A DNA stretch of 64,000 nt, taken from positions 70,680,001 through 70,744,000 of the forward strand of contig OZ024743.1 in the NCBI GenBank assembly GCA_964016885.1, in the 5' to 3' direction. The stretch is from Eledone cirrhosa. Taxonomy: Eukaryota. The position numbers and the translations under genes are program-made. The notes beneath the pieces were generated by a model. The model was given only the letters and a program-made list of their open reading frames with translations. It ran no database searches and had not been told where the DNA came from. Shown one piece after another: positions 32,061 through 32,176 of the stretch (its first letter is position 1; each line of letters opens with the position of its first letter).

Positions 32061-32176
32061 TTTCCACCTGGCCTTTTGATTAATAAAAGGCCTCGGGCGC
32101 ACCCGAACTACACCGATGTCCTGTAATTCAGCACCGAAACATCGGTTCGGGCAACATTTACAGCTGACGATGGAAA
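32061..32176 (+). ncRNA. Non-circularly permuted hammerhead (family D)
   Basis: TTTCCA..GGCCTTTT/AAAAGGCC..GGCGC a CCCGAA..ACCGATGT C^CTGTAA ttca GCACC GAAACATCGGT TCGGG..TTACAG-CTGACGA-TGGAAA. Confidence 0.82.

Follow-up and report, generated by a model that had tools for sequence, protein, structure and literature searches.

A predicted hammerhead ribozyme of non-circular topology in a likely Naiad-type passenger repeat of Eledone cirrhosa

Can a hammerhead ribozyme be formed when its conserved blocks stand in a non-circular order? Positions 32061-32176 of the window, by which we mean the whole stretch of 64,000 nucleotides of Eledone cirrhosa DNA that was analysed, raise this question. The site belongs to a repeat family (D) that has counterparts in families A, B, C and E. 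Its sequence is quite probably that of a non-circular hammerhead in which stem II has its 5' strand shifted to the front, with a predicted cut after C32120, and the repeat is likely the passenger of a Naiad-type Penelope-like element (PLE). In a base-by-base check of pairing, all helices that a sequence-only reading had named at this site were found in the same order (Table 1). The spacer between stem I and GAAA has 9 nt, as that reading had said. Stem I has 6 bp in D, compared with 7 bp in A and B, and the single mismatch of Pb in the window copy places C32098 opposite A32133.

Table 1. Coordinates of the family D site and of related repeats in the window
Feature	Position	Strand	Remarks
Pa	32061-32066/32171-32176	+	6/6 paired; inserted helix; 5' strand 32061..32066 holds the open 5'/3' ends of the ribozyme
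Hairpin H	32070-32077/32085-32092 (span 32070..32092)	+	8/8 bp; inserted helix
Pb (predicted stem II)	32096-32100/32131-32135	+	4/5 paired; 5' strand begins with G10.1
Extension E	32102-32106/32147-32151	+	5/5 paired; putative stem I-II interaction helix, by analogy with the accessible text of PMC10085705
Stem III	32112-32119/32139-32146	+	8/8 paired
GUC triplet	32118-32120	+	predicted cut between C32120 and C32121
Stem I	32121-32126/32158-32163	+	6/6 paired
GAAA	32136-32139	+	
CTGACGA core	32164-32170	+	
Block S	32112..32126	+	stem III strand, GUC triplet, stem I strand
Block G	32131..32146	+	stem II 3' strand (A32133 minority variant), GAAA, stem III strand
Block C	32158..32176	+	stem I strand, CUGACGA core, Pa 3' strand
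Family D insertion, 5'-truncated	31770..32274	+	3' part of a 753-795 bp non-coding unit
Family A ribozyme (predicted), first of partial tandem	55124..55229	+	period 706
Family A ribozyme (predicted), second copy	55830..55935	+	
Family B copy	55968..56023	+	5' end at its own predicted cut site
Family B ribozyme (predicted)	56450..56556	+	period 533
Family B partial tandem	30214..30854	-	two ribozyme copies
Family B-type partial tandem	13599..14232	-	two ribozyme copies
Family C ribozyme (predicted)	15469..15573	-	

The site has the complete hammerhead core (CUGAnGA, GAAA and a UH triplet), and stems I, II (Pb) and III flank it, covariation included. The blocks of D follow the order S-G-C, that is cleavage site, GAAA, CUGAnGA. 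This is a non-circular permutation, different from the circular orders CGS, GSC and SCG of types I, II and III. Blocks S, G and C were defined by Eckert et al. 2023 (PMC10085705), who, in the accessible text of that article, validated types SGC and CSG in vitro. The SGC order cleaves there at the analogous site and requires a helix by which stems I and II interact. The link from stem I to stem II has 4 nt in D. Pb is predicted to be stem II itself, with G32096:C32135 as the canonical G10.1:C11.1 pair, and Pa and H would consequently be an insert between A9 and G10.1 that bears the ends of the molecule.

One alternative is an ordinary type SGC whose stem II forms directly and is short, so that Pa, H and Pb are incidental. 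D permits a 2-bp direct G-G/C-C stem past a bulged U. However, direct pairing of the bases 3' of CUGAnGA with those 5' of GAAA is limited to 1-2 bp in all five families, with a single base pair in every family but D. Moreover, Pa and Pb covary and recur in Naiads from several phyla, which makes a plain type SGC very improbable. The hammerhead reading was kept with refinements: the topology is non-circular and SGC-derived, Pb is taken as stem II, and what had been called an extension corresponds to the stem I-II interaction helix of type SGC.

Chance complementarity inside a repeat would also produce pairings, the more so since the helix registers were partly selected for best pairing. Against this, a strict S-G-C descriptor found six sites in the window (D, two of A, two of B, and C) and none in 100 dinucleotide shuffles. 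The same descriptor found four sites in 39 arbitrary 10-kb stretches (390 kb) and one in 20 shuffles of them. Ordered Pa, Pb and E arose in 92 of 20,000 trials in which only the 5' arm of D was shuffled, and the fold z-score of the D motif was -3.2. In 11 copies of families A, B and C, 96.2% of the cells of the six-helix pseudoknotted structure were paired, compared with 28-46% when the partners were slid. These slide controls are generous because the structure was drawn from the same related sequences. Both sides had changed in 18 of the 34 pairs, including five of seven in pseudoknotted stem I, two of four in stem II and five of six in helix E. With these controls the probability of a chance origin is close to nil.

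When D was compared with each other family, 10-12 of the 24 aligned pairs changed on both sides and 9-14 were identical, with the registers of Pa, Pb and E picked for best pairing. When strands of D were combined with partners from the other families, 157 of 240 cells paired; for cognate strands the figure was 143 of 144. The earlier claim that the helices of D differ almost entirely from those of A and B was overstated, given the identical pairs, while the distance of D in sequence holds: a covariance model built from A, B and C misses D at E<=5 and D can thus be called sequence-distant. The same model detects family E (E=1.2e-5). That a permuted hammerhead is common to sequence-distant families is backed by the pairings, by covariation and by the same layout in published Naiads.

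Family E is an old fifth family (L140-L159), with 71-91% identity among the scored matches. It keeps Pa, Pb and the E helix but lacks hairpin H in the space from Pa to Pb, and 3 nt separate its CUGAUGA from Pa. A decayed candidate for a sixth family, in S-G-C order (model E=2.6e-7), was seen at L061:7364-7495 on the plus strand and is followed by a PLE RT fragment.

No Rfam model matched the motif at E<=10, and the 150 Rfam matches listed across the window are microsatellite-driven miRNA models. The pseudoknot-free minimum free energy was -37.3 kcal/mol, compared with -29.1 for the nested frame alone. This minimum is a competing fold that buries GAAA in another hairpin, and it counts against the ribozyme reading. 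So do the stem II mismatch of the window copy and positions 10.1/11.1, which have no G:C in A, B, C or E. With the pairing and covariation taken together, the site is nevertheless very probably a selected hammerhead design.

The sequence-only reading had guessed that a perfect Pb would read GGTGC/GCACC. This was wrong, as the majority of copies have GGCGC/GCGCC. For this count each search contributed its best 30 of 40 scored copies, in order of similarity to the window copy, and six duplicate loci were dropped. Among the resulting 55 best-scored D copies the 5' strand is GGCGC in 41 and GGTGC in two, and the 3' strand is GCGCC in 39 and GCACC in 11; GAAA is kept in all 55 and CUGAnGA in 54. 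Among the first 100 genome-wide exact matches listed, counted by eye, 91 have G in place of A32133. By these counts A32133 is a minority variant. The 29-nt S-G block of D has 266 exact copies genome-wide, a first look gave 904-1,121 D candidates, and the B-type block has 5,768 exact copies. Identical copies exist within family B. The 390-kb sample scales to about 30,000 copies of all families in the 3.0-Gb genome, with a wide error since it rests on 4-5 matches; three of the covariance-model matches in this sample are training sequences.

The D unit is pyrimidine-rich (30% purine in the sense strand), has a tandem period of 753-795 bp, and its longest ATG-started frame encodes 66 aa. Its 3' end is fixed about 150 nt past the predicted cut and is followed by (TA)n. 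Copies have variable 5' starts, 5' truncation, partial tandems and inverted 5' pieces, and most are 5'-truncated or about 1.2-mers. Families A, B and C behave in the same way. Judged from its sequence, this is the anatomy of Penelope-like elements. D shares with non-autonomous PLEs and non-LTR retrozymes the non-coding (partial-)tandem unit with one predicted hammerhead each, as well as the fixed 3' tail, the 5' truncation and the inverted 5' copies; it does not share the type I hammerhead of retrozymes.

Other elements are also present in the window. Tandem arrays with 472/484-bp units lie at 553-3750 (plus strand, 6.7 units) and 16376-22152 (minus strand, 11.9 units). Each unit contains a single minimal type I hammerhead, as in a classical non-LTR retrozyme, and in L204 the unit recurs downstream of a PLE ORF, at a distance of about 3 kb. 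A 746-aa PLE ORF at 24344-26584 (minus strand) has a GIY-YIG-like C-terminal region and no Pfam match, and possibly belongs to the Hydra clade. An inverted partial copy of it lies at 26969-28069 (plus strand), and type I-like hammerheads are found at 22866, 26817 and 29703. A canonical minimal type I PLE hammerhead is located at 31130-31165 (minus strand), about 600 bp upstream of the D insertion. Finally, 47935-49014 (minus strand) encodes a 359-aa C-terminal piece of a non-LTR retrotransposon (zf-RVT, E=4e-6).

Naiads were described by Craig et al. 2021 (PMC8557442) as lacking canonical hammerheads. The accessible text mentions cores and 'half cores' with GAAA 35-50 nt off, a preference for (TA)n targets, tandem or inverted insertions, and remnants in cephalopods. 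We read passages of the consensus text of that article by eye. The split layout Pa-H-Pb-E-S-G-E-C-Pa ends at least 10 of the 54 consensi, from coral, jellyfish, acanthocephalan, crustacean, octopus and squid. These are Naiad_Amil, Aacu and Anas (near-identical corals), Naiad-3_Chem, Naiad-2_Movir, Naiad_Plae, one crustacean entry (part 19), Naiad_Obim, Ovul and Esco. Stem II reads GGCTCC/GGAGCC and stem I TAGGAT/ATCCTA in the coral Naiad, while Plae has Pa AGAGG/CCTCT and stem II GGCCCC/GGGGCC. Naiad_Bfor fits the split layout partly, with a stem I of 2 bp. At least six further consensi are of type CSG with an interaction helix of 9-13 bp (in File S5: Nbra 1-3, probably Hpol, a Pristionchus entry and one entry in part 16). 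For Naiad-1_Chem, Naiad-2_Chem, Asuum and EuTe the 3' ends that were displayed had no such motif, and none was seen in the bivalve Naiads of the consensus text viewed.

The total of at least 16 Naiads is a lower bound, because line ends hide motifs in a text search and some places fell outside the view (CTGATGA 54-62, CTGACGA 15-23, CTGAGGA 15-25, CTGAAGA 1-4 and 32-43). Some of the split-layout Naiads carry the label HHR_core or HHR_half_core in the accessible part of PMC8557442; Amil, Plae and Obim carry none there. Since the same layout ends published Naiads, the scrambled hammerhead is likely their overlooked ribozyme. D combines the (TA)n target with the ribozyme layout of Naiads, the latter judged by eye on the consensi accessible.

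The sequence-only reading had advised a search for a linked autonomous PLE, and none was found in this genome. Between the repeats and the ORFs beside C (L072/L073) and D (L014) lies (TA)n or unrelated sequence. At 49 loci around GIY-YIG matches we found only PLEs with a C-terminal EN, never contiguous with the SGC motif; intact ORFs of this kind (844-1,096 aa) are present. The 15 chosen loci with paired SGC copies contained no Naiad ORF, and none was contiguous with an SGC copy. The motif from the published 3' end of Naiad_Obim had 0 matches in the genome. Naiad RT motif patterns gave one match, a decayed remnant, compared with two control matches, and a second pattern search gave 0. A protein database search with the decayed remnant returned nothing. 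The one Naiad-like family seen here is decayed, with many stops, 69-76% DNA identity and an S-G-C motif that is not readable, which agrees with the remark on cephalopod remnants in the accessible text of PMC8557442. It comprises about 280 candidates (L191, L211-L270), and at their 3' end GAAA occurs together with a degenerate core, in an order that is not clear. No pLTR sequence common to D and Naiad was found, the genome matches being decayed Naiads only. As family B has identical copies, either a divergent Naiad was missed by these seed-limited searches or another (TA)n-targeting PLE moves the units, and another PLE clade may do so. We somewhat favour Naiad machinery as the mobiliser of D.

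The 5' ends of the insertions were compared with the predicted cut. Within -25 to +37, 10 of 35 D/(TA)n junctions, positioned by eye, fall at +2 to +6 (binomial P=0.0014 under uniformity). These make up 10 of the 19 loci that begin in -25 to +6, and 16 further loci are spread over +7 to +37. One locus (L138) restarts twice exactly at +1 and another (L136) begins at +2. In family B, most junctions listed are at +8/+9 on TAAT, with no clean peak at the cut, and about 3-4 of about 30 loci listed (first 100 of 2,186 rows) are at +1. The clustering of B junctions on TAAT means that TA microhomology can explain much of the 5'-end peak. As a sign of cleavage in vivo, the peak is suggestive and confounded by this microhomology.

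Two further observations concern 5' ends. At L138:1376-1669 (repeat orientation) short D repeats restart at the predicted cut, as if the RT had jumped template at a cleaved 5' end. The D copies at L111, L116, L118 and L130 are 5'-truncated within 4 nt of one another at hairpin H, and this shared point is possibly an RT stop or another case of TA microhomology.

We propose that Pa, H and the hairpin made of E plus stem III would fold first as a nested frame. The loop of this hairpin would dock on the junction via stems I and II as two pseudoknots, and an ordinary hammerhead core would be built. E and the 3-5 nt link between stem I and stem II would stand in for the usual loop-loop contact. Cleavage would trim read-through or tandem transcripts to unit length, giving linear or circular RNA. 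The RT/endonuclease of a PLE would copy the unit RNA into (TA)n from a start point some 150 nt 3' of the cut. Target-primed reverse transcription would start internally at the fixed tail and could run past the cut site. Such an internal start was shown for another PLE in the accessible text of PMC11167929. The same text counts against our reading in that insertion of a PLE in vitro did not need cleavage, and cleavage needed protein. We expect, with good though not full confidence, that D cleaves in vitro at the predicted site.

It could also be argued that the fold descends from a hammerhead but serves the PLE protein for recognition or priming, with cleavage weak or dispensable. Many insertions span one or two cut sites uncleaved, hammerhead cleavage of a PLE was dispensable in vitro (PMC11167929, accessible text), and eight of nine Xenopus retrozyme dimers showed no cleavage in the accessible part of 10.64898/2026.07.22.740005. 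However, a circular template would span cut sites too, and CUGAnGA, GAAA and the UH triplet are conserved over five families and distant phyla. We consider this explanation improbable and favour a cleaving hammerhead.

The ribozyme might instead be active only as a domain-swapped dimer. One copy would then place its E/stem III hairpin on the Pa/H junction of a second copy, and the cut would occur only where two pLTR-like copies meet. Helix E has to extend with its far end to the tips of stems I and II, although on one strand 0 nt separate its near end from stem III, and a rough estimate of this span (helix rise compared with linker reach) is borderline. Partial tandems are common. Dimers are the rule for minimal PLE hammerheads (PMC4209133; reportedly also Lunse et al. 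2017). In the text accessible, PMC10085705 flags the same span as not obviously fitting the crystal structure, and PMC4209133 has canonical PLE hammerheads acting as dimers. On the other hand, SGC constructs cleave during transcription (PMC10085705, whose accessible text does not distinguish cis from trans), and the lengths of linker and helix permit a strained cis fold if E frays. The dimer is a serious possibility, and we lean against it. In a wider sense, our view tends to be that Naiads across animal phyla carry non-circularly permuted hammerheads missed by standard descriptors. Among them would be a four-block topology not described before, in which two helices are inserted between A9 and G10.1. 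This form may be active solely as a domain-swapped dimer, and in that way it would sense two terminal repeats.

If true, this moves non-circularly permuted RNAs from uncultured metatranscriptomes to animal chromosomes, breaks the published rule of an uninterruptible block C, and overturns both 'Naiads without hammerheads' and the notion that this absence aids their spread. One 120-nt transcript would suffice to test the question, and many natural variants are available for asking how the hammerhead core tolerates a five-way junction. A full-text literature search that included few subscription papers found no report of non-circular hammerheads in Naiads, PLEs or animal genomes. Nor did the full-text search, outside the Eckert alignments and the bioRxiv supplements, find a helix insert at A9/G10.1. 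The accessible text of PMC13725137 mentions 'additional helices or alternative permutations' by citation only, and a term search of PMC10162972 gave no match. According to the accessible text of PMC10085705, no non-circular types were found in the genomes of known organisms, barring one doubtful GCS, and block C is assumed to be uninterruptible, with an insertion of no more than 1-2 nt.

Among the known systems, compared here from the accessible parts of their descriptions, type SGC (HRIMA-1) is like D in its S-G-C order, full core, short stem I-II link and a helix joining the far sides. In type SGC the 5' strand of stem II directly follows CUGAnGA, whereas in D it lies upstream, behind Pa and H, and block C is not intact. 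Unlike in type SGC, both strands of E connect to stem III in D. D would work like type SGC, yet we set it outside the membership of that type. Type SGC is known from metatranscriptomes, while the motif analysed here is chromosomal, with thousands of copies. Type CSG, represented by two metagenome sequences in PMC10085705, is a circular permutation of the same S-G-C cycle, but it opens between blocks and D opens inside an added helix.

The Naiads of PMC8557442 have in common with D the (TA)n targeting, the tandem and inverted structure and the ribozyme layout near the 3' end; unlike them D has no ORF, and no sequence link between D and Naiads was found in this genome. Non-LTR retrozymes (Cervera and de la Pena 2020, PMC7229834; Li et al. 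2026, 10.64898/2026.07.22.740005) are likewise non-coding, PLE-derived tandem units with one hammerhead each, and the unit length of D lies inside the 51-972 bp reported for them. They carry type I hammerheads, unlike D, most copies of which are 5'-truncated or about 1.2-mers. The minimal type I hammerheads of PLEs (PMC4209133) occupy the same place as the D motif, a pLTR-like 3' end upstream of a fixed tail. Their order is circular and their stem III vestigial, whereas D has a stem III of 8 bp and two predicted core pseudoknots.
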